A stretch of DNA of 58,440 nucleotides from a virus (taxonomy: Duplodnaviria > Caudoviricetes), in IMG/VR virus record IMGVR_UViG_3300027757_000006, positions 1 through 58,440 of that record; one strand, given 5' to 3'. The translations under genes were made by a program, and so were the position numbers. Positions within the stretch are counted from its first letter, which is position 1; each line of letters starts with the position of its first letter. Below are positions 1 to 58,440 of this stretch, one piece after another. The notes beneath the pieces are model-generated. The model saw nothing but the letters and a program-made list of their open reading frames with translations. It was not told where the DNA came from and did not search any database.

Positions 1-98
1 TGCTCGGCCTGGAGTGCTCGGCCTGGAGTGCTCGGCCTGGAGTGCTCGGCCTGGAGTGCTCGGCCTGGAGTGCTCGGCCTGGAGTGCTCGGCCTGGAG
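1..98. repeat. 14-bp tandem repeat (TGCTCGGCCTGGAG)x7, continuous with the array at the window end
   Basis: Read directly; the same unit with 2-nt variants occurs at 58373-58440, so the contig is probably a circle broken in this array. Confidence 0.97.
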
Positions 99-278
99 GT
101 TAAATATATCGTAAAATCCTATTCTTAAGTTGATGCGCTACTTTCTCCAATCTATTAATCGTAGCAAAATATTGTTGACAATAGTAGCCTCTTAAAAAAA
201 TATTTCAATAAAAAAAGTCGATGTAAAGTATTGACGCAAAGTTGACTAAATATATTTTCACAAACTAAAAATTTTTAA

Positions 279-322
279 GGGTCCTATTTGTCACTAACCA
301 CTGCGAGGGTATTCGGATCGCA
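279..322 (+). other. Putative cos site: cosQ-like GGGTCCT (279-285) and cosN-like dyad TGCGA-GGGTATTCGGA-TCGCA (302-322)
   Basis: GGGTCCT is the lambda cosQ sequence; the dyad lies 16 bp downstream (lambda ~17 bp); the site is just upstream of Nu1/gpA-type terminase genes. Confidence 0.65.
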
Positions 323-7665: not shown

Positions 7666-8036
7666 TGACAATTCTTTCTGTAGGGCTTGAAAAGCTTTCG
7701 CATTTTGCGCTAGCACCTACTGCTTCACGTACTTCTGCTCTTGACGGCACTGCTGTTGACTTGAATGATTACGAAGGCGACATTTGCGTGATTCTCGATG
7801 TCGAGAATGGCGGAACATCAACTTTAGATGTCAAGATTCAGTCAGCTGACACTTCCGGTGGGACTTACTCTGATGTCCCTGACACTTCTTTCACTCAAGT
7901 GAGCACAAGCGCAAGCAAGCAGACGCTTGTTTTCCCAAAGGGTAGCGCCAAGCGCTTTATCAAAGCTGTTTCAACAGTTTCAACTTCAACTCATACCTAC
8001 AGCGTCAATGCTTTTGGTGCGCTGAAGTACGCTTGA
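7665..8036 (+). CDS. Putative head decoration / spike-base protein
   Basis: Beta-rich 123 aa (TLDVKIQSADTSGGTYSDV) following the capsid gene. Confidence 0.6.
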   Translation: MTILSVGLEKLSHFALAPTASRTSALDGTAVDLNDYEGDICVILDVENGGTSTLDVKIQSADTSGGTYSDVPDTSFTQVSTSASKQTLVFPKGSAKRFIKAVSTVSTSTHTYSVNAFGALKYA

Positions 8037-11406: not shown

Positions 11407-12776
11407 CTTTAGTTCCACAGCATATTATCCTTCAGTCCCCAGCGTCTAATGATCCGTTGCTGGACCTTAATACACAACCAAGTCTTGACCTGCAGTTTGC
11501 TACAGGCAAGACACTTAATGATCGAGTAAGCGGTAACAACTTAATCACGTTTAGTCGTGCAGATGCTACTACCTGTGCAACTTATGTTGATAGCAATGGT
11601 GTTATTCAAACTGCTGCTGCAAATGTACCCCGCTTTGATCATGACCCCGTGACTGGTGAAAGTCTGGGGTTGTTGATTGAAGAGAGTAGGACGAATAAAC
11701 TTGCACGTAGCGAGGAGTTCGATAATGCTTATTACACAAAGGCATTTGTAACCGTCACACCTGATCAGAGTGCTGCCCCTGATGGTAATACAACCGCTGA
11801 TCAAGTCCTGCCTACAACTAATGGCAGTTATCACAGAATAACTAAAAGCGGTCTTTCTGTTTCCGCCCCTTGTGTTCTTAGCGTGTTCGTGAAAGCAAAC
11901 GGTTACAATCACTTTCAGCTTAGGACTCGTGGTAGCAGTAATAGAGCCACGGTATTTGATGTAAGTGATGGAACTATTACGCAAGAGATGGAGGCCAGTA
12001 TTGGAGAAACGAATCTAGGTAATGGTCTGACTCCAGTTGATTACGGTAACGGCTGGTGGCGTTTAAGCATGTTACGAACGGACACCGACACAATCACAGC
12101 CGTTGACCTTTCTGTTTTAGATACAGGAACACCCGGCAGTCAGGTTTATGTGTTTACAGGTGACGGTACGTCAAGTGTTTTCTGCTGGGGAGCAATGCTA
12201 GAGCAAGGTTCCTTCCCAACCTCCTACATCCCCACCGCAGGTACAACCGTAACCCGTGCTCCTGAGCTTGTAAGTATCCTTGGGGCGGATTACACGTCTG
12301 TGTTTGGCACTGACTTGGGTGCCGGTACTGTCTTTACTGATGTCAAAGTACTTGGGGAGAAAGGCAACACAAATACTGGTTATTTTAGTTCGTTCAGTAC
12401 CAACGATAACAACTCTTTTACTACCTTTACCGCATATGACAACCGTCTTACTGTTGGGATAACAACGCCTAACGCCAATATTGATAGATATAAAGATCTA
12501 ACTGGGGTACGTGTTAAATCTGCTGTCTCTTGGAATGATCTTGAACAACCAAGGGATGACCAAGACAACGCTAGCCATGCTTTGGATGGGACATTATATG
12601 GGGGGTTCCAATACAGAGGGTCTGGGACCCCATTAAATACAGAATATGACCGTTTTGGCATAGGAAGAGCTATACGGGCAATAACTACTTTCGGCTCAAT
12701 AAACGGCCACATCTCCCGCCTTGCCTATTACCCATACCGCTTGGCTGACGCCACTTTACAGGAGATCACATCATGA
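11403..12776 (+). CDS. Head spike/fibre protein (paralog 2)
   Basis: Same motifs as 9670-11406, with DNA blocks identical between the two genes. Confidence 0.75.
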   Translation: MTLVPQHIILQSPASNDPLLDLNTQPSLDLQFATGKTLNDRVSGNNLITFSRADATTCATYVDSNGVIQTAAANVPRFDHDPVTGESLGLLIEESRTNKLARSEEFDNAYYTKAFVTVTPDQSAAPDGNTTADQVLPTTNGSYHRITKSGLSVSAPCVLSVFVKANGYNHFQLRTRGSSNRATVFDVSDGTITQEMEASIGETNLGNGLTPVDYGNGWWRLSMLRTDTDTITAVDLSVLDTGTPGSQVYVFTGDGTSSVFCWGAMLEQGSFPTSYIPTAGTTVTRAPELVSILGADYTSVFGTDLGAGTVFTDVKVLGEKGNTNTGYFSSFSTNDNNSFTTFTAYDNRLTVGITTPNANIDRYKDLTGVRVKSAVSWNDLEQPRDDQDNASHALDGTLYGGFQYRGSGTPLNTEYDRFGIGRAIRAITTFGSINGHISRLAYYPYRLADATLQEITS

Positions 12777-13966
12777 GTTGGATTATTACTAGCGATCAGG
12801 TCAGCCCTCCTGGCGATGCTGCAATTACTTATGGCATCACAAATGCTGGCGGTGTTTTTAACCTTAGGTCTACAGGCACTGTTGATTATGAAGCTGAATG
12901 GGGCGATGGTAATGTTGAGATAAGCACACTTAACGTATTACCTCACACCTATACTGCTGGTGATTATTCAGTGGTTGTTTATAGTGATGGGGTTTATAGG
13001 CCGTATTTCAATAACGTATCCGCTGATGCAAATCAGATTACTTCTGTTGCTATTGGTAGTGGAGCTAATTTAGGGACTAGCCTAGATTCTGCTTGGGAAA
13101 CCGCAATTAACCTAGCAACGTTTACATGCCCATTTGATGCAACAAGTTCGGTTACAAACTTTGTTGACTCTTGGCGACGTTGCAACAGCCTAACAAGCTT
13201 CCCGTTAATTGATACTTCTAGTGGTACAAGCTTTTCTTACGCTTGGTACAACTGCTCCAGCCTAACAAGCTTCCCATTATTAAATACTTCTAGTGGTACA
13301 AGCTTTTTTGCCGCTTGGAGCAACTGCTCCAACCTAGCCAGCTTTCCATTATTAATTATGTCTAGTGGTACAGACTTTGGTCGCGCTTGGAACAGCTGCT
13401 CCAGCCTAACTAGCTTTCCATTAGTAAATACTTCTAGTAGCGCAACCTTTGCTGCCACTTGGGAGGGGTGCTCCAACCTAGCCAGCTTTCCATTATTAAA
13501 TATGTCTAGTAGTACAAGCTTTGTTTACACTTGGAACAACTGCACCAGCCTAACTAGCTTCCCATTAGTAAATACTTCTAGTGGTACAAACTTTACTGCC
13601 ACTTGGGCCAGTTGCTCCAGCCTAACTAGCTTCCCATTATTAAATACTTCTAGTGGTGCAGACTTTAGAAGCGCTTGGGCATTCTGTAGTTCTCTATCAG
13701 ATTTCCCCGCCAACATGTTTGACACGACGGGAGCACTTATTGCTGCTGCTTTTAATAACGCTTGGAGAAACTGTGCCCTCACTGCACAATCTATTGAGAA
13801 CATCCTTGTCTCACTAGACACTAATGGTGCTACTGGTATCACGCTTGGCATCGACGGCGGAACTAACGCTGACACCTCCACATGGTCAGCGGCTGCTAAT
13901 GCAGCGTGGCTTAGTCTTGACGCCAAGGGCTGGAACATCAATCAGAATGGACCTGATCCTACCTAA
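12773..13966 (+). CDS. BspA/DUF285-like leucine-rich repeat surface protein with PKD-like N-terminus
   Basis: EWGDG..HTYTAG PKD-like motif and ~8 copies of a 22-aa repeat NCSSLTSFPLLNTSSGTxFxxAW. Confidence 0.8.
   Translation: MSWIITSDQVSPPGDAAITYGITNAGGVFNLRSTGTVDYEAEWGDGNVEISTLNVLPHTYTAGDYSVVVYSDGVYRPYFNNVSADANQITSVAIGSGANLGTSLDSAWETAINLATFTCPFDATSSVTNFVDSWRRCNSLTSFPLIDTSSGTSFSYAWYNCSSLTSFPLLNTSSGTSFFAAWSNCSNLASFPLLIMSSGTDFGRAWNSCSSLTSFPLVNTSSSATFAATWEGCSNLASFPLLNMSSSTSFVYTWNNCTSLTSFPLVNTSSGTNFTATWASCSSLTSFPLLNTSSGADFRSAWAFCSSLSDFPANMFDTTGALIAAAFNNAWRNCALTAQSIENILVSLDTNGATGITLGIDGGTNADTSTWSAAANAAWLSLDAKGWNINQNGPDPT
13180..13710 (+). repeat. 66-bp coding tandem repeats, ~8 copies
   Basis: Recurring agcttcccatta..aatacttctagtggtaca unit with period 66. 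Confidence 0.85.
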
Positions 13967-19600: not shown

Positions 19601-21397
19601 GAAGTTTTCTTCAGGTCAATCGGTGGAACGGCTGCAACGAAAGAAACGCTGAGATCAACCTTTAAGGATATTGTCAAGAATCTTGATATTGTCGAAGCTA
19701 GGCTCGCGAAAACAAAGAAAAGTATTAAAGAGTTTAAGGCATCACAATCAGATGGAGGCGAGCGGGCCATGGGGGGAAGTGCGCCTCCTCTCGCTGGTGT
19801 AGCAGTCCCAGAAGACTTGACATCAAGGCTAAAAGCAGACGAGGCAGCTCAAGCAAGACTTCGACTGAACTATAAAACCTTAATTGAAAAGTACCCTAGT
19901 GCTCCAGAAGCCGCTAAAGGTCTAACTGACTTCGCTTCTCCTACCGGCACTGATACCGGCGGCGGCGGCGGCGGCGGCGGCAAGGCAGAAAAAGTGCGCA
20001 AGTCTTTGCTTGATTCAATCATAAATGAAGGCAAACTCATTGCCGCTACAAAAGCGAGGCTGGATAACGAGATAGATATTGGCGAAGCTCAAAACAAAAA
20101 CAACAGGTCAAGGGTAAATCAGTTAAACAACCAAAGAATTTCTATTGACTTTGCCGAACAAGCTGCACAGGTTGAACTGAAATATCTCGAAGCCCTTAAG
20201 GCTGCCGAGGGGCAAAAAGAACAGGGCGCATTGGTAGCAGAAGCTATTGCAACTAAACAAAACGACGACGCTCGCCTTTCAATTGAATATGCTGCAGAGC
20301 TTACGAAAGAAGCACAGCGATACAGGTTTGAGAAAGAAGCCATTGCAAAAGCGTCCGAAGACGAGCTGTTTAGCTTGCGCGATCAGCTTGGCTTGGTGAC
20401 AAACGAGCAGAGAATTGAAAGATTCAGGCAGTCAAGGAAAGACGCAGGGGATCCAAACGCTGAACAGCAAACCGATCTGTTCCGCCAAAGAATAGATCCA
20501 ACGTTGACGGAAGGGTTGAGCCAAAACATTCGCAGTTTGAAAAAAGAACTGGAAGATCTGGTAAATCCAATCAATCAAATCACTGGCGCAGCAAACGCTA
20601 TTGGCAGTGCATTCTCTCAGTCGTTCACCAATGCAATTACTGGTGCCACAAGTGCGAAGCAGGCATTGGCTGATTTTTTCAAGAGTGTTGGTAGTTATTT
20701 CTTGGATATGGCGGGGCAGATTATTGCGAAGATGGTGACAATAGCGGTTTTAGATGCTGCTTTGGGCCTTCTTGGTGGCAGCAGTGGTGGTGGTGGTGGT
20801 GGTGGTGGTGGTGGGTTTAACCCCAGCGCACCAAGTATTACAGGTAACTCACTCGGAGACTTTGGCGGTGGTACGCCTTTTGCTGGAGCGTTTAGGGCTA
20901 ACGGCGGCCCAGTTAGCGCAAATAAGCCATATATCGTGGGCGAACGTGGGATGGAGCTTATGGTCCCTTCGGGCAACGGAAACATTATTCCAAACGATGT
21001 CTTTTCGGCAAGTCGTGCTGCTATTTCTGGCGGCAGCCCATTGGGCCTTGCTGGCGGCTCTGGCGATCTTGGTCAGGACGGAATGGCCGAAAGTCGTAAT
21101 TACATCAACAACAACTACTCAACTCAGCAAGCCATTGCTCAAAGTCAAGCGGCTGTATCATCAAGCTCTATGTCAATGGAGCGAGTGATTGAGCGTAAGG
21201 CTGCAGAACGTCAAGCCACTGAAATGTCAGAGCCGATCAGGGTTAAGCTAGATACCACGGTGATCAACAATGTGGAATATCTAACAGTTGAGCAAGGACT
21301 TGCGCTTTCCGAATCCGCTTCTCGCAAGGCCCGTAGCCAGGTATTTTCTGACTTAAGGCAGCGGCCTGCATCAAGGTCCAAAGTGGGGCTTGGCTGA
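16607..21397 (+). CDS. Tape measure protein
   Basis: 1596 aa, Ala-rich helical, QIFSKGKVSAEE tape-measure motif, C-terminal ANGGPV..YIVGERG motif. Confidence 0.95.
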   Translation: MASKTVSPVDIKIKVTGAEQLASLKSSFRDLSKQTKLSDISIVQAAKDIRNFAAEAGNSEATVRGQIKALEGLRQQAAMGGRMYKFLAAKIGDLGLAIKGSSTQIEEQRSALLEIGSAASSSSAQIKKAIDGLKQLRNQASQDSQAFFGLSKEIDELTKKVNSLDAALEQNASRNRARAASVSGVLAKYEAAARKQAQAAKEREEIVRGEVIALSEKGKATEELAKKENQLTAAIARRKQLGIQETAREARRSVRAGAQVYTGNVELGPIDALDQRLGDLPATTAAFSQRLTELQDRLINTVRSSDQYVAVALRIAQVQREATATAQGLGAALVKDLASGNTVRNQKNLREAIGQLQAEMNELNTETAEGSSKYAENARQVNNLQKELNEIAGSYRNVTDMARQASTAQGVYANTSVGGNYLRRGIVRQQEAARAELGAAVRAGVASTPLLLPAAGQTTAPGTGLARSGMARGVFDLTGNVTRARPVPADFPGLKEDAAALPTAATGVNAALGMSEPIKKQANALREAAAAYKPYNAEIRKAKAANNGSISGINNLKAALERKRNELPTTTAAFKRLTQQIENLDRQSEKASRRMSRRKFSPGKAAQVAGATISGGIFGGPEGFLGGAIGGAVGGVGGSFAGAALGAQVGQLRQQLGGFAEYAASIEKLKIALNGIAGDASNYNQALQAAADVTKELNIPQEVAIRGITRLTAAVKGAGGGIADAELAFKNINSAIIATGGGAEQVEGAVTALVQIFSKGKVSAEEINQIAERLPGTFNKIAEASGRTGPELTKALQKGEVGLNDLMKFLVQLGGEYGELAKKIAGSSESAGARLTVAYDKMRLEIGKALQPIGAEFQEAFLEFITDIGPSLVVMAKAVGEGMRFIIQNRGAILTIASFAAKLVAVNFALKAFVALSGPLKLMFALIRTGFRQTTQQASLAATKLARFGTTVKTLAASLAAPIVISFAIVGAELVISYFNRIKQAKADLDASGTKPQGEVFFRSIGGTAATKETLRSTFKDIVKNLDIVEARLAKTKKSIKEFKASQSDGGERAMGGSAPPLAGVAVPEDLTSRLKADEAAQARLRLNYKTLIEKYPSAPEAAKGLTDFASPTGTDTGGGGGGGGKAEKVRKSLLDSIINEGKLIAATKARLDNEIDIGEAQNKNNRSRVNQLNNQRISIDFAEQAAQVELKYLEALKAAEGQKEQGALVAEAIATKQNDDARLSIEYAAELTKEAQRYRFEKEAIAKASEDELFSLRDQLGLVTNEQRIERFRQSRKDAGDPNAEQQTDLFRQRIDPTLTEGLSQNIRSLKKELEDLVNPINQITGAANAIGSAFSQSFTNAITGATSAKQALADFFKSVGSYFLDMAGQIIAKMVTIAVLDAALGLLGGSSGGGGGGGGGGFNPSAPSITGNSLGDFGGGTPFAGAFRANGGPVSANKPYIVGERGMELMVPSGNGNIIPNDVFSASRAAISGGSPLGLAGGSGDLGQDGMAESRNYINNNYSTQQAIAQSQAAVSSSSMSMERVIERKAAERQATEMSEPIRVKLDTTVINNVEYLTVEQGLALSESASRKARSQVFSDLRQRPASRSKVGLG

Positions 21398-35179: not shown

Positions 35180-35391
35180 TCCCTGCTGATGGGAGGTGGT
35201 TGTTTAGATTCTCAACGCGATCACCGCTTGAGGGATTGAAGCGCGAAATTCAACGTCGTAAATTCGAGGCAACCCTAAAGCCTCGGATTGACGCTGAGGT
35301 TGAACGCTGGCATAAATCACAGCCGCCAGTCATGCCACCACCCCAGATCAACGACCTGCACATTAAATCACCTTGGAATGACGAACAGTAA
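35170..35391 (+). CDS. Probable -1 frameshift extension of the holin-like gene (ORF 35200-35391)
   Basis: Slippery G GGA AAA AAG at 35164-35173; the -1 frame is open through 35391. Confidence 0.6.
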   Translation, partial: KGLIPADGRWLFRFSTRSPLEGLKREIQRRKFEATLKPRIDAEVERWHKSQPPVMPPPQINDLHIKSPWNDEQ

Positions 35392-37012: not shown

Positions 37013-37645
37013 GTGGCAGCTGAGTTTAGGCAGTGTCGAAGAAGCAGTCTGTGCCGGGAGTACCTCAGCACAGACCTAATGAAGCATGAAAAAAATGGAT
37101 GGGTATGCGATCCTCACATGTGCCCCCGGAGGGTGCCGGAAAGTAATAATTCTTATCAAGTCGAAAAACGCTATCTGACAACAGCGAGAATCATGTTTCT
37201 AACCTCGGCCAAAGAGGACCAAGACCCTGAAGAGTTTAGTGAAATATTTGCATCAAGACTAGAAGAGTTGACAGAAGAAATAGTAAGTTTTGACCTAGAA
37301 GTTGTGCCGTTAAATGGCGGTTTTATTGGTCATGAGATCATAGGGTCCGAGCTTGTACCTAAAAAAGCAAGCAAACACAGGTTCAGAAAGCAGATTTTAG
37401 ACGAATGGGATAATTGCTGCGCCTACTGCGGCCAGCCCGGTGACACCTTGGATCACATCCTTGCTAGATCTAAAGGCGGCAGTATGAGCGTCACTAACAA
37501 TCTCTTATGCTGCTGCAGGTTTTGCAACGGATCCAAGAGCGATAAACCTGTATGGGAATGGTTTAGGGCGCAGCCCTTTTGGAGCCAAGAACGGGAAGAC
37601 CATATCAAATACTGGATGGAGCATGGAACTTTGGATCAGCCATAG
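37013..37645 (+). CDS. HNH endonuclease with acidic N-terminal extension
   Basis: CAYCG..TLDHI..SKGG..N...CCRFCNGSK; start codon uncertain. Confidence 0.85.
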   Translation: MAAEFRQCRRSSLCREYLSTDLMKHEKNGWVCDPHMCPRRVPESNNSYQVEKRYLTTARIMFLTSAKEDQDPEEFSEIFASRLEELTEEIVSFDLEVVPLNGGFIGHEIIGSELVPKKASKHRFRKQILDEWDNCCAYCGQPGDTLDHILARSKGGSMSVTNNLLCCCRFCNGSKSDKPVWEWFRAQPFWSQEREDHIKYWMEHGTLDQP

Positions 37646-45426: not shown

Positions 45427-46821
45427 TCAGAAATGCCGCGATGCCATTATTTTCTTCGCCCATGGTACTGGGTATTTGTAACCTCGACTTTTGCCTAGCT
45501 CAATCAGCTGATCCAACGTTTTGGCTCTGCCCTGCTCCGCACGTTTAGCAATATGGGCTTTCTGTTTTTGCAATCTCTCCAATGCAGCCGCCTGTCTTGA
45601 ATCAATCTCTCCTAGCTCACCATCAACCTCGGCTGGGCCGCCACGATTCGGGGCCGGATAACGATACCCGCATTCAGGGCAAACCGGCGCTGGAACATGA
45701 GCACAGAAACAAGCAGGACACTGCCTGACGGGAGGTGCCTGTTCACCGCGCCTCTTCCGTCCCTCCAGGCTCCATTGCCGTTCCATGTCCGGGGGACCGT
45801 GCTCGAAAATCGAACCGGCATGATCTAAAACCGTCAGATGCTGCTTGCCACTGTCCGGCGACGTTCGCAGCCCACGACCTATTGCTTGCAAGTAGAAAGT
45901 CAAACTCTTAGTTGGCCTTAGCAAAATAATGCACTCGATCTGGGGTACATCAACACCAGCCACCCACAGCTGGGCATTGCATACAACCTGCAAACTGCCG
46001 TCCCTAAGACCAGTCAAGGCCGCGACTCTCTCTGATCGTTTGCTCTTGCCTGAAATTGCCACTGCCTTGTAACCCTGAGCCTGGAACTCAGCAGCAACAT
46101 GGTCGGCATGGCTAATCGACGTGCAAAATGCCACCGCTCTTTTGCCATTGCAATGCTTCTGGTAATGCTTAATGACATCACCCGTGATGGTCGAACGGTC
46201 CATCTCACCATCTATGTCCGACTGCCTGTAGTCACCGGCTTGCATCCTTAGCCCGGTCAGGTCTGGTCGATGCGGCGCAAAGTATTTGATCGGGGCCAAT
46301 AGCCCCTCTTGGATTAATGCGTTAGTGCTGCATGTTGGCACGATCTCATCAAAAATTTCACCCAATCCCTTACCGTCCAGCCTGCATGGAGTGCCGGTCA
46401 GCCCCAGCAGCGGTGGGTTGCCAATCTTGCCCATCACCTTGAGGTAAGTCGTCGCCACGGCTAAATGGCACTCATCCACAATCACAAGGTCAGGTGGCGG
46501 GAACCCATCACGCCTCGCAGCAGTTTGAACGCTCACGACCTGAACCCGGCGGTGATACTCCATTGGCTTGCCAGCAGCAATCTCGCCAAAAGGAATCTTC
46601 ACCGAACGCAGCCGGTTGGCCGTGTCATCCAAAATCTCCCTCAGATGAGCAAGAAACCAAACAGTCTTGCCCTTCTCAAGGGCGCTGCGGATTATCTCAG
46701 CACTGGTATGGGTCTTGCCAAACCCAGTGGCAGCACACAGAATCGGTGACCGATACCCAGACCGGTACGCAACCCTGATGTCATTAATCGCCTGGACTTG
46801 GCGGGGGCGGAGGGAGGTCAC
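45427..46821 (-). CDS. Superfamily 2 (DEAD/DEAH-box) helicase with Zn ribbon
   Basis: ATGFGKT, DECH, TGTP and QAIGRGLR motifs; CPAC/CPEC. Confidence 0.95.
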   Translation of the reverse strand: MTSLRPRQVQAINDIRVAYRSGYRSPILCAATGFGKTHTSAEIIRSALEKGKTVWFLAHLREILDDTANRLRSVKIPFGEIAAGKPMEYHRRVQVVSVQTAARRDGFPPPDLVIVDECHLAVATTYLKVMGKIGNPPLLGLTGTPCRLDGKGLGEIFDEIVPTCSTNALIQEGLLAPIKYFAPHRPDLTGLRMQAGDYRQSDIDGEMDRSTITGDVIKHYQKHCNGKRAVAFCTSISHADHVAAEFQAQGYKAVAISGKSKRSERVAALTGLRDGSLQVVCNAQLWVAGVDVPQIECIILLRPTKSLTFYLQAIGRGLRTSPDSGKQHLTVLDHAGSIFEHGPPDMERQWSLEGRKRRGEQAPPVRQCPACFCAHVPAPVCPECGYRYPAPNRGGPAEVDGELGEIDSRQAAALERLQKQKAHIAKRAEQGRAKTLDQLIELGKSRGYKYPVPWAKKIMASRHF

Positions 46822-47348
46822 TGGTTGTAAAACTCACCGTGATGTTCTTTGCAGAATCGTTGATAAGCTTCTGATGCTTCTTCTGCAGTGCGAAAAGATC
46901 CGAGATAAAATGGAGTCCCATTAATCTTAGCCGTAGCAAAGTAAGGTTTATTGCGATGAGAATGCGTTTTATTTTTAAACACACCCTTATAGCCAGTAGT
47001 GTTACTTTTAGACACTCCTCGATTGTATTGATTCTGAGCATTAGTCGCAACACGCAAGTTGCAGATTCTATTGTCTAAACCGTTATGGTTTTTGTGATCA
47101 ATGTTCTTTTCGCCAGGGTCTTCTTTGTAGTAAAGAAGCCAAGCAATTCTGTGCGCTGGGTGTCTAGCCTTGTTCACAGCTATTCGTCGATAAAAAGTTT
47201 TATGGTCTTTCTCTATTGACCCAGCTTCTGCCCCTGCTATTACATTTCTGCAAGGTTTAATTTTCCAATAGATCTTTCCAGTCTCGGGTTCGTAGCGGAA
47301 AAACTTGTCAACCTCCTCGAACGGAGGCAGTGGACGAGATTTAGTCAT
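46818..47348 (-). CDS. HNH-AP2 homing endonuclease
   Basis: AHRIAW..IDHKNHNGLDNRICNLR HNH motif plus AP2 (TGYKGV..YLGSF.TAEEA); ATG 47348 is ATGA-coupled. Confidence 0.9.
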   Translation of the reverse strand: MTKSRPLPPFEEVDKFFRYEPETGKIYWKIKPCRNVIAGAEAGSIEKDHKTFYRRIAVNKARHPAHRIAWLLYYKEDPGEKNIDHKNHNGLDNRICNLRVATNAQNQYNRGVSKSNTTGYKGVFKNKTHSHRNKPYFATAKINGTPFYLGSFRTAEEASEAYQRFCKEHHGEFYNQ

Positions 47349-48160
47349 ACTTCCTCTTGTTGGGCTTTTCTCAAAACTTCCATAATCCAGCGCCATCTAG
47401 ATTTAGAGTAAAAAGGTTTGGATTTGAACCATTCAAAAGCGTCCAAGACCAACTTGTCGGTGTTACATGCTTGACAAGCAGGTACAATGTTGCCCAGGTT
47501 GTGCTGACCTCCTTTACTAATAGGGACTACGTGTTCAACCTGTAAATTACCAATTACTCCGCAATATGCGCAACGATTATTAAACGCTTCCCAGTGACTC
47601 AAAAGCTGGGAGTCGCTTAAGAGTGAAGGTGTTCCGCCACGTTGAGCAACCTTGCGTCCTTTTGACTTAGCACGGTGGTACAACCGATAACCAGGTTCAG
47701 TCATATATCTAAAGTGATAACGTGCGAGATTCCGCGAACGCGCATAAGATTCACGTTCATCGGGATGATCGCGCCAATATTCTTGTTGTTGTTCAAGAAC
47801 AAGCATTGCTACAGACGGAATGCGGCCTGCTGACGCAATTGAACGACGCATGGCAGTAAAACCTTTGTCGAAGTAAGCGCGGTAAGGAAGCCCGTACTTA
47901 GATCGTGATGGTCTGCCGTGTATTGCTTTGTATTTTGCTTGATATGTATTTAGTTTTTCCCTGAGCTCTGGGTCTTCTCTTTTTTTTCTCTGCCTTTCCA
48001 CGGCGTCAATACGACTGCAAATGCAGCATTGGCTGTTTTTGACCCAGCGAAGAGTCATGCCATCGGTGTGGACGTGGTTGCGCTTGCAAATCTTGCCAAG
48101 ATAAAAGACCCCAGAGTCAAAGGGATGACCAACCTCAGGCAGTATGTACTTTTTAGACAT
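47345..48160 (-). CDS. HNH endonuclease
   Basis: CAYCG..EHVVPISKGG.H..NIVPACQACN; N-terminal CKRNH/CCIC. Confidence 0.9.
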   Translation of the reverse strand: MSKKYILPEVGHPFDSGVFYLGKICKRNHVHTDGMTLRWVKNSQCCICSRIDAVERQRKKREDPELREKLNTYQAKYKAIHGRPSRSKYGLPYRAYFDKGFTAMRRSIASAGRIPSVAMLVLEQQQEYWRDHPDERESYARSRNLARYHFRYMTEPGYRLYHRAKSKGRKVAQRGGTPSLLSDSQLLSHWEAFNNRCAYCGVIGNLQVEHVVPISKGGQHNLGNIVPACQACNTDKLVLDAFEWFKSKPFYSKSRWRWIMEVLRKAQQEEV

Positions 48161-51302: not shown

Positions 51303-52058
51303 ATGCCAATCACCTTCGACGCTGAGGAAATAACCGGCAAGCTGGATGCCATCAGGCTCACCCAGTTGCCATTCGCTGCATCGAGAGCAGCTAACCAACT
51401 CGGCTGGGAGCTAAAGAACTCGGCATGGCCTGCTTTTGCCAGGAGAGCCTTCACCGCCTCAGGACCACCAGTCCCATTCACGACTGGCGGGAGTGGGGTT
51501 ACTGGCGGCTTGCTCTACAAGCACAATCGCGGAGACGCCAGGGTAGAGATAAGCCTTGATCGCCCTGCACCTAAAGGGCAAGACCCTGCTCGCTACCTAG
51601 CACCTACGGAATCAGGTGGCTCGATTTACATCACTCGCTTTTCGCGAGCTTTGGGCAACCAAGGCTACATGCCGTCAAATTTCAAATACGCAGCGCCTTT
51701 GAAAGGCAGCAACGGTTTTGCTGGGCAGATGAACGGCAAGGTCATCAAGCCTGGGTACTACCAATCAATTCTTGCTGGGCTGGCTAGAGGTTTGACTCCA
51801 ACAAAAACAGCATCAGGTAATCGGTCTAGGGCTAAGTTCACCGGCTACAGGTTTTTCTCCGTACCAGAAGCTCGCGGCAGCCTTAAGCCTGGTATTTACA
51901 GGGCAAAAGGCCGTGGCGAGCTGCAGCAGCTATTCAGCTACCTCGATCAGACGCCTTCGGTTCCCTCTTTATGGAGCTTTGAGGAGTTTGCAGAACGCGA
52001 ATCGTTACCCATACTGGAGCGCATACTCCCCCAGTTCATTGAGGAAGCCTTGAAGTGA
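51303..52058 (+). CDS. Minor tail/neck-like protein (gpZ/HK97 gp10-like), displaced from the tail cluster
   Basis: QLPFAASRAAN N-terminus and basic KPGIYR motif. Confidence 0.55.
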   Translation: MPITFDAEEITGKLDAIRLTQLPFAASRAANQLGWELKNSAWPAFARRAFTASGPPVPFTTGGSGVTGGLLYKHNRGDARVEISLDRPAPKGQDPARYLAPTESGGSIYITRFSRALGNQGYMPSNFKYAAPLKGSNGFAGQMNGKVIKPGYYQSILAGLARGLTPTKTASGNRSRAKFTGYRFFSVPEARGSLKPGIYRAKGRGELQQLFSYLDQTPSVPSLWSFEEFAERESLPILERILPQFIEEALK

Positions 52059-54621: not shown

Positions 54622-54826
54622 AATAGCCAACACTGAAGACGGGCTTGGGTTGAACGTGAGGGTCTGCGAGGATTCGATTTGCCTTGTCGGCTTCTGTAGT
54701 TCGATGCACCTCATTGAAAAGAAGGCCAATGAGCTGCGAGCTGCTATCAGGAAAAAAGCGGCTGAAACTTTTGCTGAGATCCAAGACCTGGAAGCCGAGG
54801 CAATGGGAGCACCTGGGCCGCGATGA
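54611..54826 (+). CDS. Hypothetical protein
   Basis: GGAGG SD before ATG 54611; CSSMHLIEKKANELR motif. Confidence 0.65.
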   Translation: MTVEIANTEDGLGLNVRVCEDSICLVGFCSSMHLIEKKANELRAAIRKKAAETFAEIQDLEAEAMGAPGPR

Positions 54827-55050
54827 GCGTACAGACCGAGCAGCAACGTCTCGAAATGCCTGCTCATCCTCTGCCTGTATTGGAGCGTAATCAAGACGTA
54901 AGAATTTTCATGGGTGCAGGTTGGGCTAAAGGCAAGGTCATTCGTTCGGATTTAGACGGTTGCACGGTTCGGCTGCCTCAACTCCAGAAAACCGTCCGCG
55001 TTCGCGATGCTCGCAACATCCTCCTGCTTCCGTCGATGCAGGATTGCTAG
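54823..55050 (+). CDS. SH3-like small protein
   Basis: VRIFMGAGWAKGKVI...VRVRDARNI; ATGA-coupled. Confidence 0.65.
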   Translation: MSVQTEQQRLEMPAHPLPVLERNQDVRIFMGAGWAKGKVIRSDLDGCTVRLPQLQKTVRVRDARNILLLPSMQDC

Positions 55051-55080
55051 TCAAAATGCGTTTAATGGTGTATGATTGAT

Positions 55081-55113
55081 TCGTCGGCGGGTTTCGTCGG
55101 CGATTTTTTTTTT
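55081..55113 (+). terminator. Rho-independent terminator
   Basis: TCGTCGGCG-GGTTT-CGTCGGCGA stem (with G-U pairs) followed by a long T-run. Confidence 0.65.
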
Positions 55114-55119
55114 TAATCC

Positions 55120-55542
55120 ATGACTAAATTCATTCCAGTAAATGCAGCCCTCAAGGCGCTATCAGCAGAAGGCCATGAGGTAAGCAAGAGAGGCCGACTA
55201 AACGGTGGTGTTGCGCAGCTAGGCAATCCTTCGTATTTCATTGACGGAAAGCCCTGCAGCTTAAGTGAAGTACGCAGAATGGTCTCTGAACTTGGGCTTG
55301 AGAAGGAAGTCAAAAAATCTCATCAAAAGCCCAGGAGAGAGATCGAAGTTATCTCTGAAGCTGTTTCTCAAAACGAATGGTGTAAGTCCAGAAACACCAA
55401 GCTTTCTACTTTTGGCGAAAGGCATTTTGATGGTCGCGTTTACTATTCACTATCTCAAGACAGTCGCGACGGTTCTCGCAAAGGTTATTTTATGACAATT
55501 CAAAGAATCAGGCTTTGGGCTGAACGCAACAAGGTTATTTAG
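55120..55542 (+). CDS. Hypothetical basic protein
   Basis: 140-aa ATG ORF; no recognised family. Confidence 0.6.
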   Translation: MTKFIPVNAALKALSAEGHEVSKRGRLNGGVAQLGNPSYFIDGKPCSLSEVRRMVSELGLEKEVKKSHQKPRREIEVISEAVSQNEWCKSRNTKLSTFGERHFDGRVYYSLSQDSRDGSRKGYFMTIQRIRLWAERNKVI

Positions 55543-55547
55543 CGGAT

Positions 55548-55632
55548 GACTTGCAAGCCTCCGGTTTTTACCGTGGGACTTGCACACACCCGGTTTTTAG
55601 GGGGCATGGGACTTGCAAGGGGTCGGTTTTCT
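55548..55632. repeat. Three copies of GACTTGCA-N5-6-YCGGTTTT
   Basis: At 55548, 55577 and 55610. Confidence 0.75.
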
Positions 55633-55963
55633 TTATGTTTTCACACACACAAAAATACATACGGTTATAGGCAGGTTTATGGCGTGGTGAGCAGTATAAA
55701 AAATATTTCCTGAGCTATTCGCGCAAATTCAAAAAAATATTGTTATTGCGAATTAATTGCAATAAGAAAGTAGGGCACTAAATATCATAATCCTAACTCG
55801 ACGCGAGTTAGCATCAGATAGCGATACCTTACTTTAGATTTAGCAATCACTATTCTAAACATTGCTAAACGCATTGTTTAAGCAAACTCAAAAAGTAGGT
55901 GTTAGCGACCCTGTGAGTTTGTTATTAATAGTGTTGTTTTAGTTCCAGTAAAATAGGGCGAGC

Positions 55964-56115
55964 CCTATTCGAGCGGAACCGTGTTCGGCCTATTCGAGCG
56001 GAACCGTGTTCGGCCTATTCGAGCGGAACCGTGTTCGGCCTATTCGAGCGGAACCGTGTTCGGCCTAATCGAGGAGAACCGTGTTCGGCCTAATAGAGGA
56101 GAACCGTGTTCGGCC
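55964..56115. repeat. 25-bp tandem repeat CCTATTCGAGCGGAACCGTGTTCGG x6 (last two degenerate)
   Basis: Read directly; invariant core GAACCGTGTTCGGCC. Confidence 0.96.
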
Positions 56116-56227
56116 ATAAGCTGAACCTATGGCCAGACCTCAGGAGGCCGTCTCATAAGCGTATCGGCTTATCAGTGCTCTGTATCGCCTCCTACGATTA
56201 ACGCTGCTAATAGGGTTACGCTATGGC

Positions 56228-56257
56228 TTGCGTTCTCGGCTGATCTGTTGCTATAAA
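56228..56257 (+). promoter_or_regulatory. Putative early sigma70 promoter TTGCGT-N18-TATAAA with extended -10 TG
   Basis: Motif spacing; heads the terminal operon. Confidence 0.55.
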
Positions 56258-56300
56258 GAGGAGGCGATCGAAGGGTCGCGGTTCAAATGCTTTTTATCAA

Positions 56301-56453
56301 ATGCCTAACCTCTATCAACTGATGATCGAAACCAAAGACGGCCTCGTTCCCATGTCCTGGTCTCCTAGGCCGTATAAGTCCGTTGCTGCATTGTTTCACT
56401 ATTACTCTCGGACCTGGCCAATGAACGCCTACTGGATAAGAGAGGTCAGCTGA
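56301..56453 (+). CDS. Hypothetical early protein (50 aa, not in ORF track)
   Basis: MPNLYQLMIETKDGLVPMSWSPRPYKSVAALFHYYSRTWPMNAYWIREVS; first ORF after the promoter. Confidence 0.6.
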   Translation: MPNLYQLMIETKDGLVPMSWSPRPYKSVAALFHYYSRTWPMNAYWIREVS

Positions 56454-56492
56454 CCAGCTTCTCTTCTCCTTTGTTCTTTCGCTTAAAATCAA

Positions 56493-57071
56493 ATGTCTAA
56501 CGATTACACGGTTCTTCTCACTGGTTCAGATAAGGAGGCTTACATCTCTCAGAGGTTCCCCACTCGCAAGGAGGCCTGCATCCCCGATCCTTGTACCTGC
56601 TCTTCTCCTGATACCGTCTCTGCTGAACTTATAGCTCTCTGTTCTGAGCTCTCCTCTCGTTTCGAGAATAAAAAGAGAGACAACGGAGACGTGTTCATTG
56701 TCCTAGGAGGCCCAGATGATCAGGTCAGAGAGTCTGCCTCCTCTGCTCTTATGGCTGCTCATAGTGACGAGCTCCCTAATGATTGGCGCTATGAGGTCTG
56801 TTCTCTGACTTGTGACGCTATCTCGGAGGCCGAGGAGGCGGAGGAACTCTCAGAGATAATCAATGAAGTTGCAGAGAATGTGACTACTGTTTATAACTCT
56901 ATGCTGTTCTCTTGGTATGCAGAGAACTCCACTCGCCTCAGTTATGCGGAGGAGGCTAGGGAGGAGTTCGGACCCAGTGAGGAAGTACTAGGAGACCTCC
57001 ACCTGGGCCAGTATCTAGCTGCGAGAGAGACGGCTCAGAGCTTCATTGATTCTCTGGTCTCTTCATTATGA
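56493..57071 (+). CDS. Acidic Ocr-like (T7 gp0.3-type) DNA-mimic candidate
   Basis: ELSEIINEVAENVTTVYNSMLFSWYAEN resembles Ocr [28 protein letters not shown]; strongly acidic. Confidence 0.6.
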   Translation: MSNDYTVLLTGSDKEAYISQRFPTRKEACIPDPCTCSSPDTVSAELIALCSELSSRFENKKRDNGDVFIVLGGPDDQVRESASSALMAAHSDELPNDWRYEVCSLTCDAISEAEEAEELSEIINEVAENVTTVYNSMLFSWYAENSTRLSYAEEAREEFGPSEEVLGDLHLGQYLAARETAQSFIDSLVSSL

Positions 57072-57301
57072 AATATATCTGCGAGCACACTGACACGTTT
57101 GGAGGGGAGCCAAACTACTCCTGGGTTCAGAGAGAAGAGCTGACTCTCTCTGATAACGTCTCAGACCTCTCTCTCGTAAGAGCTGCCAAGTCTGTCTTGG
57201 GCCTCTCTGGCGTTAGGTGCCAGAGGTCAGAGGCCGGAGAATCTATCGAGCTACGACCTTACGGCTATTGTTCAATCGTCTTTATTACTCCAATTTATTA
57301 A
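57068..57301 (+). CDS. Phage early-region hypothetical protein
   Basis: TDTFGGEPNYSWV motif; coupled start. Confidence 0.7.
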   Translation: MKYICEHTDTFGGEPNYSWVQREELTLSDNVSDLSLVRAAKSVLGLSGVRCQRSEAGESIELRPYGYCSIVFITPIY

Positions 57302-57307
57302 TTAATT

Positions 57308-58141
57308 ATGACAACTTCAACGCTTAAGTCTTCCAAACTATGGGAGAACGTAGAGAAGCTTCTCTCTCTGTCTGGCTCTTTTTATCTCTATGAACCTAGG
57401 GAGAGGTGTCGCAACTCTGGTCATGGCTCTCCTCTGGAGTGGGTAGCAGTCAATCCCAATGAAGCCGATTATCTGCATTATTCAGACCTGTCAGATACCA
57501 GTCTGGCTTTGTGTTCGACTCTCGGGTCAGGCCGTTGTCAGCTTGAAGCTCTGGAGATAGTGGAGAAGATAACGGATAAGAGACTATGGGGCGAGGTGAC
57601 TTTATTGTTCGTCTCCGATTTTACCGGAAGCTCTGACTATTCTGGAGGTCTGCCGTATCTCTCCAACTGTGAGGTTTTGCTGGAGGAGTACAACTCTCCA
57701 GAATGTAGGGAGCTTATCGGAGGCCATGGCTCAAAGGCTGTCGTAATTGATCCCCGTTATCTCTCCGAAGAGCTAATGGAGAGTCTGGAGAGTCTGGAGA
57801 GTTATCCAGTATTGGATGAAGAGCACTGGTCAGAGCTAGGGGAGAAGCTTAAAGGAGAGGCTTTTGAGAGCTGGGTTGAATCAGACCTGAGGAGATATAT
57901 CGAGGAGGCGTTAGTCGAGGCGCTACTAGAAGGTGGAGCCAGAGAGAGAGAGGAGGCCGAGGAGGAGGCCGAGGAGATGGCAGAGAACGCTAGCGATGAT
58001 ATTCTCTGGCAGATTCTCTATGAAGCTGATTCCGACGGTTGCCTATGGGAAGAGGAGTACAACTCGATGCACTGCAACCTAGATAGAATTGATTCTTCCT
58101 TAATTGTTGACAAGTTGCTAACATCGGAGGTCGTAAAATGA
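57308..58141 (+). CDS. Highly acidic early protein
   Basis: SDYSG..YLSN and LESYPVLDEEHWSELGE motifs; Glu-rich C-half. Confidence 0.75.
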   Translation: MTTSTLKSSKLWENVEKLLSLSGSFYLYEPRERCRNSGHGSPLEWVAVNPNEADYLHYSDLSDTSLALCSTLGSGRCQLEALEIVEKITDKRLWGEVTLLFVSDFTGSSDYSGGLPYLSNCEVLLEEYNSPECRELIGGHGSKAVVIDPRYLSEELMESLESLESYPVLDEEHWSELGEKLKGEAFESWVESDLRRYIEEALVEALLEGGAREREEAEEEAEEMAENASDDILWQILYEADSDGCLWEEEYNSMHCNLDRIDSSLIVDKLLTSEVVK

Positions 58142-58314
58142 AGTTCTCAACTTCAGACCTCTGTCTGCTTTCTTGGATACTTGAGGAGACTCTCTCCTCT
58201 GACTTATCCAGTACAGAGGAGGAGGAGGTCGGAGCCCTCCTCTCTCGTATCTCTTATGAGTCTCCGTTCTCTCCTCTTAGGAGTGGCAAGGAGTGGAGAG
58301 AGTCTCGCGCCTAA
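58138..58314 (+). CDS. Small Ser/Glu-rich protein (58 aa, not in ORF track)
   Basis: ATGA overlap; MKFSTSDLCLLSWILEETLSS...; ends just before the terminator. Confidence 0.6.
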   Translation: MKFSTSDLCLLSWILEETLSSDLSSTEEEEVGALLSRISYESPFSPLRSGKEWRESRA

Positions 58315-58332
58315 CATCTCTCAGAGTCTGAG

Positions 58333-58357
58333 AATGGCCTCTTAGGAGGCCATTTTT
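58333..58357 (+). terminator. Rho-independent terminator
   Basis: AATGGCCTC-TTAG-GAGGCCATT-TTT. Confidence 0.85.
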
Positions 58358-58372
58358 AATGTCTGGCATTAT

Positions 58373-58440
58373 CCGGCCTGGAGGTCTCGGCCTGGAGTGC
58401 TCGGCCTGGAGGTCTCGGCCTGGAGGGCTCGGCCTGGAGG
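58373..58440. repeat. 14-bp tandem repeat NNCTCGGCCTGGAG, ~5 copies, joins position 1
   Basis: Variants begin TG, GT or GG; invariant CTCGGCCTGGAG. Confidence 0.95.

Follow-up and report, generated by a model that had tools for sequence, protein, structure and literature searches.

A variable gene cassette in a conserved non-coding frame beside the cohesive right end of a marine lambda-like siphovirus

Introduction

What is the role of a phage genome end at which a few small genes are bracketed by tandem repeats and palindromes? The question is raised by the right-hand end of a 58,440-nt viral sequence, which we analyzed at full length and refer to as the window. The original prediction took this end for a specialised pre-early segment, first to enter the cell and able to disarm host defences, in which one ORF would encode an Ocr-like DNA mimic and the block at 55543-56115 would pause entry or load a protein. 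We consider this reading very unlikely. The region can rather be explained as a moron-type slot for accessory genes, regulated and transcribed on its own, at the last-packaged and presumably first-entering end, an interpretation that we regard as reasonably probable.

Results

The window covers the whole genome of a marine, lambda-like siphovirus that encodes a gpA terminase. Profile searches revealed a gpA-type large terminase gene, terL (1004-2863, + strand; GpA_ATPase 3.3e-84, GpA_nuclease 5.9e-95, phrog_15), and an adjoining small terminase gene, terS (460-1017, + strand; phrog_57, 6.1e-26), an arrangement of the lambda type. A lysogeny module was not seen in this genome. The contig had been cut by the assembler inside a 14-bp tandem array, indicating that the break is an assembly artefact and not a virion end. 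A contig from an independent run matched positions 56038-58403 with 0 differences and likewise stopped inside both arrays of the region. The 14-bp array was the only sequence shared by both contig ends, and long terminal direct repeats were absent.

The contig ends of relatives revealed where the genome is opened. Among the best 80 of 365 terS relatives examined in viral contigs, 43 started at the homologue of position 306; the corresponding cos-left motif start was scored at 44 loci, one of which (L069) proved to be a false positive by eye. At 26 of 75 alignable loci the first base projected exactly onto position 306 of the window, and one contig (L051) began with what is presumably a library adapter, fused directly to the cos-left end. 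Two full-length relatives showed terminal overlaps of 11-12 nt: G001 (56,266 bp) spans from the homologue of 306 to that of 317, while the overlap of G002 (55,508 bp) measures 11 nt. Five of 24 contigs bearing the boxes described below ended exactly 38 nt past a GGGTCC motif, that is, at the homologue of 317, and two more were at most 2 nt off. Based on these pile-ups and terminal overlaps, we assigned cosN to 302..322 (no strand given) with a 12-nt cohesive end at 306-317; inverted pentamers surround the overlap (TGCGA at 302-306, TCGCA at 318-322), a symmetry read from the sequence. A cos site had been guessed at 279-322, and the overlap inside this interval strongly supports that guess. Fixed ends with a short overlap correspond to lambda-type cos packaging, and the polarity of the overlap would be 5′, with both ends keeping the overlap sequence. 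Since the terminase is of the gpA type and terS lies immediately right of cos, the segment represents the true right end, and its predicted terminal position was upheld by the relatives' contig ends. There is thus strong support for 55.5-58.4 kb plus positions 1-305 being the real right arm (~3.2 kb) beside the 12-nt cohesive end. In analogy to lambda, packaging would start at cos and run into the terminase genes, so that this arm would be packaged last; it is thought to enter the cell first.

On its inner side, the region is bordered by an intrinsic terminator-like hairpin (55081..55113, + strand; 10-pair stem with 6 GC pairs) followed by a T10 run, TTTTTTTTTT, which closes the upstream replication/nucleotide operon. 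A basic 140-aa ORF comes next (55120..55542, + strand, pI 9.9). Its presence is variable: it occurs in G001 at 86% identity and is absent in G005, and its sole Pfam match was a sub-threshold one to Lsr2_DNA-bd (E 0.0054). No ORF of at least 60 aa was found in 55543-56300. This stretch opens with three direct 22-bp boxes of the GGACTTGCAAGG-N3-CGGTTTT type (55547..55630, + strand), whose starts are 29 and 33 bp apart. The GACTTGCA triplet noted earlier is therefore real: the pattern GGACTTGCAAGGNNNCGGTTTT, allowing up to 3 mismatches, matched only 55547-55568, 55576-55597 and 55609-55630 and nothing else in the genome (3 matches vs 0.02 expected from shuffles). Each of the six relatives examined besides the window (G001, G002, G003, G005, L001 and L095) has 2-4 copies of the box at the corresponding position and in the same orientation. 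Exact matches were detected in 25 stretches of 24 viral contigs, and cos or terS followed 2.1-4.4 kb downstream in 12-13 of the 24. A conserved gene for a basic 251-aa protein (phrog_1924) preceded the boxes in 18 of the 25 stretches, the match ending at most 70 nt from the first box in about 10 of those 18.

The boxes are followed by a conserved AT-rich non-coding block (55640..55963, + strand) with long invariant runs across four genomes; the GC content of 55001-56000 is 43%, compared to 44-54% elsewhere. Within the block, a -10-like CATAAT (55786-55791) is followed at once by a perfect palindrome with 8-bp arms, CTAACTCG-ACG-CGAGTTAG (55793-55811), the arms of which are invariant across four genomes, with the central base alone varying. 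Palindromes had been predicted here, and further imperfect ones do occur in the block; a repeat search with a minimum length of 12 returned one inverted pair only (55942-55979). Boxes and block may represent an operator or an origin. The 25-bp array, also predicted, was located by repeat search at 55964..56115 (+ strand; 6.1 copies, 96% matches). At the same position relatives carry arrays of 26-29 bp with other sequence and 3.2 to 29.7 copies, and a left array was found in five of six genomes examined in detail. The subsequent leader (56116..56300, + strand), 91% identical to that of L001, contains a conserved CTATAAAG..GCGATCGAAG element as candidate cassette promoter. Its TATAAA (56252-56257) is common to the window, L001 and G001, although the cargo of G001 differs. 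The predicted promoter found no backing in a sigma-70 consensus scan of 54800-58440, which yielded 4 sites vs 3.3 expected by chance, and the leader RNA was not unusually structured (z -0.68).

The ORF list confirmed five + strand ORFs of 50, 192, 77, 277 and 58 aa. Four of them are acidic (pI 4.15-4.94), and the 50-aa ORF is basic (pI 9.2). The latter (56301..56453, + strand) lies in a 192-bp insertion (about 56309-56488) situated between two copies of a 14-bp stretch from the start region, as positions 5996-6009 of L001 align to both flanks; this closest relative lacks the insertion, and the ORF had no family match in Pfam, PHROGs or NCBIfam. The 192-aa protein (56493..57071, + strand, pI 4.15) belongs to a narrow family of 25 homologues with an invariant AHxxELPNDxRY-type motif. 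Its AlphaFold2 (AF2) model was mostly helical at modest confidence (pLDDT 74.8), and no significant structural or PDB sequence match was obtained. The 77-aa ORF (57068..57301, + strand, pI 4.94) matched an uncharacterised family (phrog_22729, E 5e-13) and has a homologue of the same length in L001. The 277-aa protein (57308..58141, + strand, pI 4.25; phrog_3906, E 7.6e-7) represents a widespread uncharacterised phage family with 523 representative clusters at E<=1e-3, the conserved core of which corresponds to about residues 98-202. Its AF2 model predicted a confident alpha/beta fold (pLDDT 94, pTM 0.88) with invariant Tyr, Asn and Gly positions and with conserved residues of pocket-like character. 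This model matched no PDB fold (best Foldseek E 0.14, best VIA Z 4.7), and its matches in BFVD were uncharacterised phage proteins only. The acidic 58-aa ORF (58138..58314, + strand) starts within an ATGA that also contains the stop codon of the 277-aa gene, and searches of Pfam, PHROGs and NCBIfam gave no homologue evidence for it. Transcripts of the cassette were seen only for a relative, as three short metatranscriptome contigs of low depth (56622-56804 and 57146-57258).

The cassette is terminated by an intrinsic hairpin (58329..58361, + strand; -25.2 kcal/mol, z -4.82) followed by a U run. The expected terminator is thus present: none of 200 shuffles was as stable, and Rfam returned a sub-threshold hairpin match only. 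Beyond it, the GC-rich 14-bp array runs through the contig break as proposed, from 58374..58440 (+ strand, 4.8 copies) to 1..98 (+ strand, 7.0 perfect copies). Tandem Repeats Finder (TRF) counted 11.7 copies on the joined contig ends, and the true copy number may differ. Relatives carry GC-rich arrays of 13-19 bp with other sequence and up to 35.6 copies at this position, and among the genomes examined in detail all five that reach the region have one. A cos-proximal GC-rich array was not detected in the more distant L103, L113, L116, L120, L124 and L125, and the right array therefore lies outside the universal core of the layout. AT-rich DNA (99..305, + strand) extends from the array towards cos and contains 5 promoter-like sites vs 1.1 expected. 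One of these, TTGACA-18-AATATT (175-204), points through cos into terS, and the TTGACA region is conserved in seven closely related sequences.

Comparison of related genomes, which the original prediction had called for, revealed that the layout recurs. The shared order is three 22-bp boxes, AT-rich palindrome block, 25-29-bp array and leader, then gene cassette, terminator, 13-19-bp GC-rich array, AT-rich DNA and cos. The cargo varies between genomes that are otherwise alike. Between the window and G005 or G001, nucleotide similarity amounts to 80-91% on both sides and is lost across the cassette. G005 encodes a 276-aa protein 44% identical to the 277-aa protein and a 248-aa protein 38% identical to the 192-aa protein of the window; G001 and L095 carry GP88-family proteins (PF17338), and G002 a phrog_2554 protein together with an HTH protein.

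Discussion

A conserved frame around changing genes is what leads us to favor the moron-type slot. Of the hallmarks of such units, an own terminator and variable content were found, while the promoter is represented by the conserved TATAAA only, the consensus scan being at chance. Read from the inner side, the replication-operon terminator is followed by the boxes and by the AT-rich block, whose -10-like element abuts an operator-like palindrome. Next come the fast-evolving 25-bp array, the leader with its conserved TATAAA, the exchangeable cassette and a strong terminator. Between that terminator and cos lie the 14-bp array, also fast-evolving, and AT-rich DNA in which a promoter-like site is directed through cos. 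With terminators on both sides and a TATAAA kept ahead of differing cargos, the cassette would behave as an independent unit, and the scaffold elements would serve as its promoter and operator. The fast turnover of cargo between close relatives points to genes acting on the host. From position and turnover, we infer that they might function in takeover or counter-defence.

Several observations favor a pre-early anti-defence module. The segment lies at the genuine right end next to cos, four of the five ORFs are acidic, and the cargo shows the hypervariability that is common in arms-race genes; the pairing of conserved, repeat-rich non-coding DNA with a variable coding stretch also recalls T5 (10.1101/866236). 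One of 96 scanned members of the 277-aa family gave a sub-threshold ArdA match (E 0.0074, 17.4 bits vs a cut-off of 27), and 2 of 61 matched at E<=0.05. However, the window's own 277-aa protein gave no match to the ArdA profile (PF07275), and none of the five ORFs had an Ocr family match in Pfam (E<=0.1) or NCBIfam (E<=0.01). Ocr was not among the best structural matches of the 192-aa or 277-aa models, although absence from such a list does not exclude the fold; the predicted alpha/beta fold of the 277-aa protein also differs from a small all-helical mimic. Both proteins carry the strong net negative charge typical of Ocr (-24 and -39, respectively), but acidity is common in this proteome, with many proteins equally acidic and many structural ones at pI 4.05-4.9. 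The label "Ocr-like" thus gained no backing from Pfam, function-named PHROGs, NCBIfam, PDB sequence profiles or fold searches, which gave no named function for any cassette protein. Nor did positive evidence emerge for a pause of injection: DnaA consensus boxes number one in the whole genome (40998) vs 5.7 expected and zero in 55543-56115, the cos ends lack long terminal direct repeats, and a named T5 pre-early function was found in 0 of 58 ORFs scanned. Furthermore, the candidate promoter is on the inner side of the operon. The cassette is transcribed towards the end, and its promoter would therefore enter after its genes. No lambda-type phage is known to enter in two steps.

The AT-rich block and boxes, with or without the left array, might instead constitute a replication origin to which the cassette is merely adjacent; direct repeats that bind an initiator would then lie beside AT-rich DNA that melts easily, where the replication module ends. 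We judge this unlikely, though worth keeping in view. The boxes, three to four direct copies spaced by about three helical turns, are confined to one genome site and are followed by DNA of low GC content and, in relatives, by tandem palindromic 16-17-bp units or 25-29-bp arrays. The block comes after a primase/ligase/kinase operon, and the frequent phrog_1924 gene upstream of the boxes would fit as well. Yet cumulative GC skew has no turning point here, DnaA boxes are missing, a cognate initiator was not identified, and a -10-like element placed directly against a perfect palindrome rather resembles a promoter with its operator. The left-array sequence differs between genomes that share 91% nucleotide identity over the primase C-terminus, so the array is not that protein's specific site. 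Such variability also suits the notion that both arrays are near-neutral slippage minisatellites, tolerated by a cos phage that can accept length change and without sequence-specific role, a proposal with a fair chance of being correct that we nevertheless lean against. Close relatives differ widely in unit sequence, period (13-19 and 25-29 bp) and copy number (3 to 36). The right arrays differ even between the window and G005, with terS 99% identical, and in several samples contigs begin or break off within arrays. The main visible effect would then be broken assemblies. Drift is harder to reconcile with arrays that recur at the same two sites in a clade in which marker-protein identity is down to about 70%. 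Right-array units moreover share a GGCC-TGG-type core, with G exceeding C on the top strand in 10 of 12, which suggests some constraint.

The cos-proximal array might also be a cis-acting, Chi-like array that switches a RecBCD-type nuclease from degradation to recombination, which seems improbable to us. After cos cutting or right-end entry, the host nuclease would load on the free right end and, within 200-350 bp, meet many Chi-like octamers on the strand ending 3′ there. LLS and MD8, two lambdoid phages, have 20-32 Chi sites clustered near the right end in active orientation, according to PMC12315714, which also gives the E. coli and Pseudomonas octamers. Position and strand of the array fit this orientation rule, and 6 of 12 relatives' array units match either octamer at 7/8 on the top strand compared to 0 of 12 on the bottom strand, and shuffled units reach 7/8 in 0.6-20% of trials; these octamers may not be those of the host. 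The resemblance to right-end Chi clusters is weak: the window's own unit matches at 5/8 only, and the arrays are related by descent, so that six of 12 are not six independent events. Array-derived octamers are neither enriched nor strand-biased elsewhere in the genome, unlike the sites described for LLS and MD8, several relatives have no such array, and the phage carries exonuclease VIII-like and resolvase-like genes, so recombination functions are not lacking. A combination of these ideas, an establishment module at the first-entering end, appears only slightly less improbable. A conserved operator or iteron scaffold would drive a plug-in cassette of fast-swapping, host-directed counter-defence genes, and an end-dependent host nuclease would be held in check in cis by a tandem array of Chi-like units lying 200-350 bp from the exposed end. 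Evasion of defences at the entering end would in that case be encoded partly in non-coding DNA, not by proteins alone, in a globally common marine phage lineage.

Compared with known systems, the accessory-gene slot shares single features with several. Ocr (T7 gp0.3) is a small, all-helical protein forming an elongated dimer that imitates bent DNA. Like Ocr and ArdA, the cassette proteins are small to medium-sized, acidic and encoded on DNA thought to enter first; they differ in lacking a sequence or fold match, and the mixed alpha/beta fold confidently modelled for the 277-aa protein has pocket-like residues that are conserved. In T5, a coding region of ~3 kb with poor conservation lies next to a conserved, repeat-rich non-coding block (10.1101/866236). 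The T5 genome has terminal direct repeats of roughly 10 kb, which carry the first-step DNA, and paired DnaA boxes in the stop region; DNA entry pauses until first-step proteins have been made, and the second step needs the genes A1/A2. The likeness to the T5 first-step transfer DNA (FST) and its injection-stop signal (iss) lies in a conserved repeat- and palindrome-rich block beside a variable coding stretch, whereas the present phage has cohesive ends, no DnaA boxes and no named pre-early function of the A1/A2 type. With the Chi clusters of LLS and MD8, the right array shares a concentration of G-rich octamer sequence close to the right cos end, on the strand that has its 3′ end there. It is, however, a perfect tandem array in non-coding DNA and not a set of dispersed sites in genes, its unit differs between relatives, and genome-wide enrichment is absent.

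The closest parallels are found among lambda-type cos phages, with which the window shares the gpA-type terminase, the 12-nt overlap and the location of cos immediately upstream of terS. Lambda and P2 carry accessory ("moron") genes between late or early regions and cos, including right-end examples, and the cassette is likewise a separately terminated accessory unit by the right end whose presence varies among relatives. It differs from lambda-type morons in that its cargo derives from uncharacterised families, in a genome where a lysogeny module was not seen, and in that the unit is set in an elaborate conserved non-coding frame of boxes, palindromes and two tandem arrays.

Physical ends of the phage DNA

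The true DNA ends of the phage could be fixed from public contigs alone. One viral collection held 365 relatives of the window's terS, of which the best 80 were examined: window position 306 was the exact first base of 26 of the 75 alignable terS loci, and a motif rule found 44 of 80 loci to begin with the homologue of 306–317 (43 after one false positive had been removed by eye). The relative G001 (56,266 bp) runs from the homologue of 306 to that of 317, and the two ends of a second relative, G002 (55,508 bp), overlap by 11 nt. Among 24 further contigs carrying the box motif of the right-end segment, five end exactly 38 nt past a conserved GGGTCC, that is, at the homologue of 317, and two more end at most 2 nt from it. 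A scan for the cos-flank pattern gave five loci and a dNMP-kinase scan only seven. In the public viral contig L051, a putative library adapter is fused directly onto the homologue of 306; the first 19–34 bases of L051 and of another such contig, L038, are apparently untrimmed sequencing adapter. As read from the sequence, inverted pentamers at 302–306 and 318–322 flank the window's overlap, 306–317. Such a pattern of ends is what one would expect from a lambda-type cosN whose overhang is 12 nt long, and we infer that the 12 nt kept on both ends fit 5′ overhangs filled in at library preparation. The original prediction had guessed a cos site at 279–322, a stretch that indeed contains the overlap marked by the pile-up of contig ends and by the terminal overlaps of G001 and G002. 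With the ends at 306–317, the right-end segment (55543–58440) together with positions 1–305 makes up the true right-terminal 3.2 kb. In L012, a contig of the relative G005, about 84 bp left of cos (homologous to window 222–305) are missing at about 7835–7850, and the junction coincides precisely with the homologue of 306. Most probably the assembler attached a fragment of the right end to the left end, and nothing has really been deleted.

The window's own start and stop both fall inside a single array of 14-bp repeats, and a contig from an independent run, identical to 56038–58403, also stops in both arrays of the segment. The break in the window is thus an assembly artefact and no DNA end. 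Because two tandem arrays lie within 3 kb of the end, assemblies of the lineage break there, so that most database records come without the right end. Public runs holding the stretch numbered 22. The runs compared with the window consisted of assembled contigs only, from which neither the ends of molecules nor strand nor level of expression can be read, and uncovered parts count as no evidence. Two RNA runs cover mainly 52.6–54.6 kb of a relative and represent the cassette by three short pieces only. A variant joint, 55020 to 55547, was seen in a single low-depth contig with 22 nt on one side.

Genome organisation and host

The window corresponds in full to an IMG/VR virus record 58,440 bp long, which is given there as 100% complete and 'linear', and it has the gene map of a tailed phage. 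terS (460–1017) and a gpA-type terL (1004–2863) are followed by portal, fused protease/major head and tail genes as far as about 34.6 kb; a gene for an endolysin lies at 35288. A minus-strand recombination/replication block (37.8–48.2 kb) encodes an exonuclease VIII-like protein, a helicase and HNH endonucleases, and a plus-strand block (48.3–54.1 kb) a primase-like protein of 886 aa, a ligase and a dNMP kinase. The fused gene is one 821-aa ORF (4970–7435) matching both a head-maturation protease and a major head protein (phrog_617, phrog_80). Inside the tail-region ORF 12773–13966 (phrog_34853), a 72/144-bp tandem repeat at 13153–13666 (3.6–6.6 copies, 78–79% identity) indicates a repeated protein domain. 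The tape-measure gene holds the microsatellites CGG ×8 (19957–19981) and GTG ×10 (20784–20814), which account for a top-strand excess of TGGTGGTG-type octamers. Three separate HNH-endonuclease-like genes (37013–37645, 46818–47396 and 47345–48160) occur in this 58-kb genome.

Named phages are only distant: S-LBS1, with a terL 46% identical, is among the nearest, and the capsid DNA of S-CBS1/S-CBS3 is 68–70% identical to that of the window. The phage had been labelled a cyanosiphovirus. The window genome contains no tRNA genes that we could find and no HIP1 octamers (0 matches against 0.9 expected), so these two tests leave a cyanobacterial host unsupported. In a genome collection, the only terS relative (70%) lay on a Hyphomonadaceae MAG contig, too weak a basis for naming that family as host.

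Anatomy of the right-end segment

Every feature originally listed for the segment was found. Three direct 22-bp boxes (55547–55630; 3 matches against 0.02 expected) are absent elsewhere in the genome. The left array of 25-bp repeats (55964–56115) comprises 6.1 copies, and the right array, of 14-bp repeats, lies on both contig ends (58374–58440 and 1–98). The five ORFs of the cassette are present, and its terminator at 58329–58361 is strong (–25.2 kcal/mol, z –4.8); another terminator, at 55081–55113, belongs to the preceding operon. In the AT-rich DNA on the far side of the right array lies a conserved TTGACA-18-AATATT site, oriented through cos into terS. A 192-bp insertion at 56309–56488, containing the 50-aa ORF and having 14 bp of the downstream gene's start region duplicated on its flanks, does not occur in the closest relative, L001. 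Searched against Rfam at E ≤ 1, the region gave only a sub-threshold Histone3 hairpin match on the terminator (20.5 bits against 34). Leader RNA stability was unremarkable, cumulative GC skew carried no origin signal, and at nucleotide level the region matched none of 50,697 phage records.

Conserved scaffold and variable cargo

Five relatives (G001, G002, G005, L001 and L095) were examined in detail, with G003 added for the boxes. As expected from the original prediction, boxes, AT-rich block and arrays recur at the same places. The boxes occur in two to four copies, on the same strand and in the same place, in all six relatives. The AT-rich block that follows them keeps long invariant runs in four genomes; among them is a –10-like CATAAT immediately followed by a perfect palindrome whose arms are 8 bp long and whose central base alone varies. 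The left array is present in five of six genomes with quite different units (26 bp in L001, G005 and G001; 29 bp in L095) in 3.2 to 29.7 copies. A GC-rich right array (13–19-bp units, up to 35.6 copies) lies 200–350 bp before the end in all five genomes reaching that far, and several contigs beginning at that point open with such an array. In the wider sample of 24 contigs, cos/terS follows 2.1–4.4 kb 3′ of the boxes in 12–13, about six end too early to judge and in five the next 5.5 kb hold no terS. Several more distant members have no GC-rich right array.

Nucleotide similarity between window and relatives is lost between the arrays, while the flanks are 80–91% identical. L001 carries the window's genes at 83–85% identity, minus the 50-aa ORF, and G005 encodes diverged homologues of the 192-aa (38%) and 277-aa (44%) proteins. 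The cargo of G001 and L095 includes GP88-family proteins, and that of G002 a phrog_2554 protein together with two small proteins, one of them HTH and the other hydrophobic. Directly upstream of the first cassette gene, a CTATAAAG..GCGATCGAAG element is common to the window, L001 and G001 despite their differing cargo. A small, conserved hydrophobic protein of 66–72 aa opens the cassette in G001, G002 and L112 though the other cargo differs (L086 2827–3045; L087 1994–2194, minus strand). Contig L088 of G003 carries two box sets (3977–4040 and 5534–5590) separated by about 1.5 kb, which looks like the insertion of a segment between two copies of the box cluster.

A basic protein of 251 aa (phrog_1924; annotation 'minor tail protein', with weak likeness to Minor_tail_Z) is encoded at 51303–52058 of the window and at 8246–9001 of L095, oddly in the replication arm rather than in the tail module. 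Of the 25 stretches with boxes, 18 have its gene upstream of them, directly abutting the boxes in about ten; in the window the distance is 3.5 kb. The protein could be the one that binds the boxes. A PDB sequence profile search with it gave nothing.

Cassette proteins

The 277-aa protein is modelled with high confidence (pLDDT 94) and belongs to an uncharacterised family that numbers 523 or more representative clusters (E ≤ 1e-3). Within the family core, at about residues 98–202, Y111, N120, G138 and Y166 are invariant and suggest a pocket. Foldseek of the model against the PDB gave no convincing solved relative (best E 0.14), a wide VIA search stayed within the chance range of helical matches (best Z 4.7), and the BFVD matches were uncharacterised phage proteins only. 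tblastn against phages found nothing, and a scan of viral contigs gave nine pattern matches, none of them confirmed. The family member P0014 matched nothing in plasmids and, among phages, gave one weak match, in a 309-kb phage. A weak, sub-threshold ArdA signal in 1 of 96 family members counts as no more than a lead.

For the 192-aa protein, the searches gave 25 close homologues and nothing besides. A resemblance of its model to the phage G1 ORF67/sigma-A domain 4 complex was rejected as not significant (Foldseek against the PDB, best E 0.3), and a wide VIA search again stayed within the chance range of helical matches (best Z 5.9). The protein Atlas held no usable match for the 277-aa or the 192-aa protein, and PDB sequence profile searches gave nothing under E 0.07. 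The 77-aa ORF matches phrog_22729; the 58-aa and 50-aa ORFs, the latter within an insertion, are supported solely by their open reading frames. One ORF had been proposed to be Ocr-like. Neither Ocr nor ArdA nor any NCBIfam model was matched, and an NCBIfam search of 15 proteins returned no hits. Four of the five ORFs are acidic (pI 4.15–4.94), a property that many structural proteins of this genome share to the same degree.

Proposed role of the segment and comparison with known systems

The right-end segment looks like a regulated slot holding accessory genes. The preceding operon stops at its terminator ahead of the slot; boxes and palindrome block are candidate binding sites for phage or host proteins, and the cargo lies between a conserved TATAAA and the strong terminator. 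From the TTGACA-18-AATATT site, the packaging genes could be transcribed only on circular or concatemeric DNA; the lambda late transcript likewise drives packaging genes on such DNA. If lambda is a guide, the right end would be packaged last and enter first. Any head start would be small, however, given that the cassette has its putative promoter on the inner side. Turnover of the cargo suggests host-directed functions; the anti-defence, Ocr-like and injection-pause readings are ideas, for which we found no positive computational support. The predicted anatomy and cos site are right, are now much better founded, and belong to a conserved layout.

Relatives of the phage are numerous in marine viromes. 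Their right-end architecture, now defined, is conserved, and near-identical genomes differ in the cargo that it holds. The slot is a precise place to seek new host-takeover or counter-defence genes and, at the end that enters or is packaged last, elements acting in cis. The 277-aa protein, confidently folded and from a large family without known function or solved relative, is a worthwhile target itself.

Among the papers listed by a literature search, none described a cos-type cyanosiphovirus with such arrays. PMC12315714 describes lambdoid phages LLS and MD8, in which 20–32 Chi sites in active orientation cluster near the right end, and gives the octamers of E. coli and Pseudomonas. Of 12 right-array units from relatives, 6 agree with one of these two octamers at 7 of 8 positions on the top strand; on the bottom strand no unit reaches that level, and the window's own unit reaches 5 of 8 only. 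The arrays share ancestry. Octamers derived from the arrays are not enriched elsewhere in the genome. For T5, a preprint (10.1101/866236) describes a repeat-rich block that is conserved and adjoins about 3 kb of poorly conserved sequence. The window, too, pairs a conserved repeat-rich block with a variable stretch, which is a real parallel, but the T5-defining terminal repeats, paired DnaA boxes and A1/A2 are absent from it. We rate the region as a known sort of accessory region at a cos end, made unusual by its elaborate, conserved scaffold.
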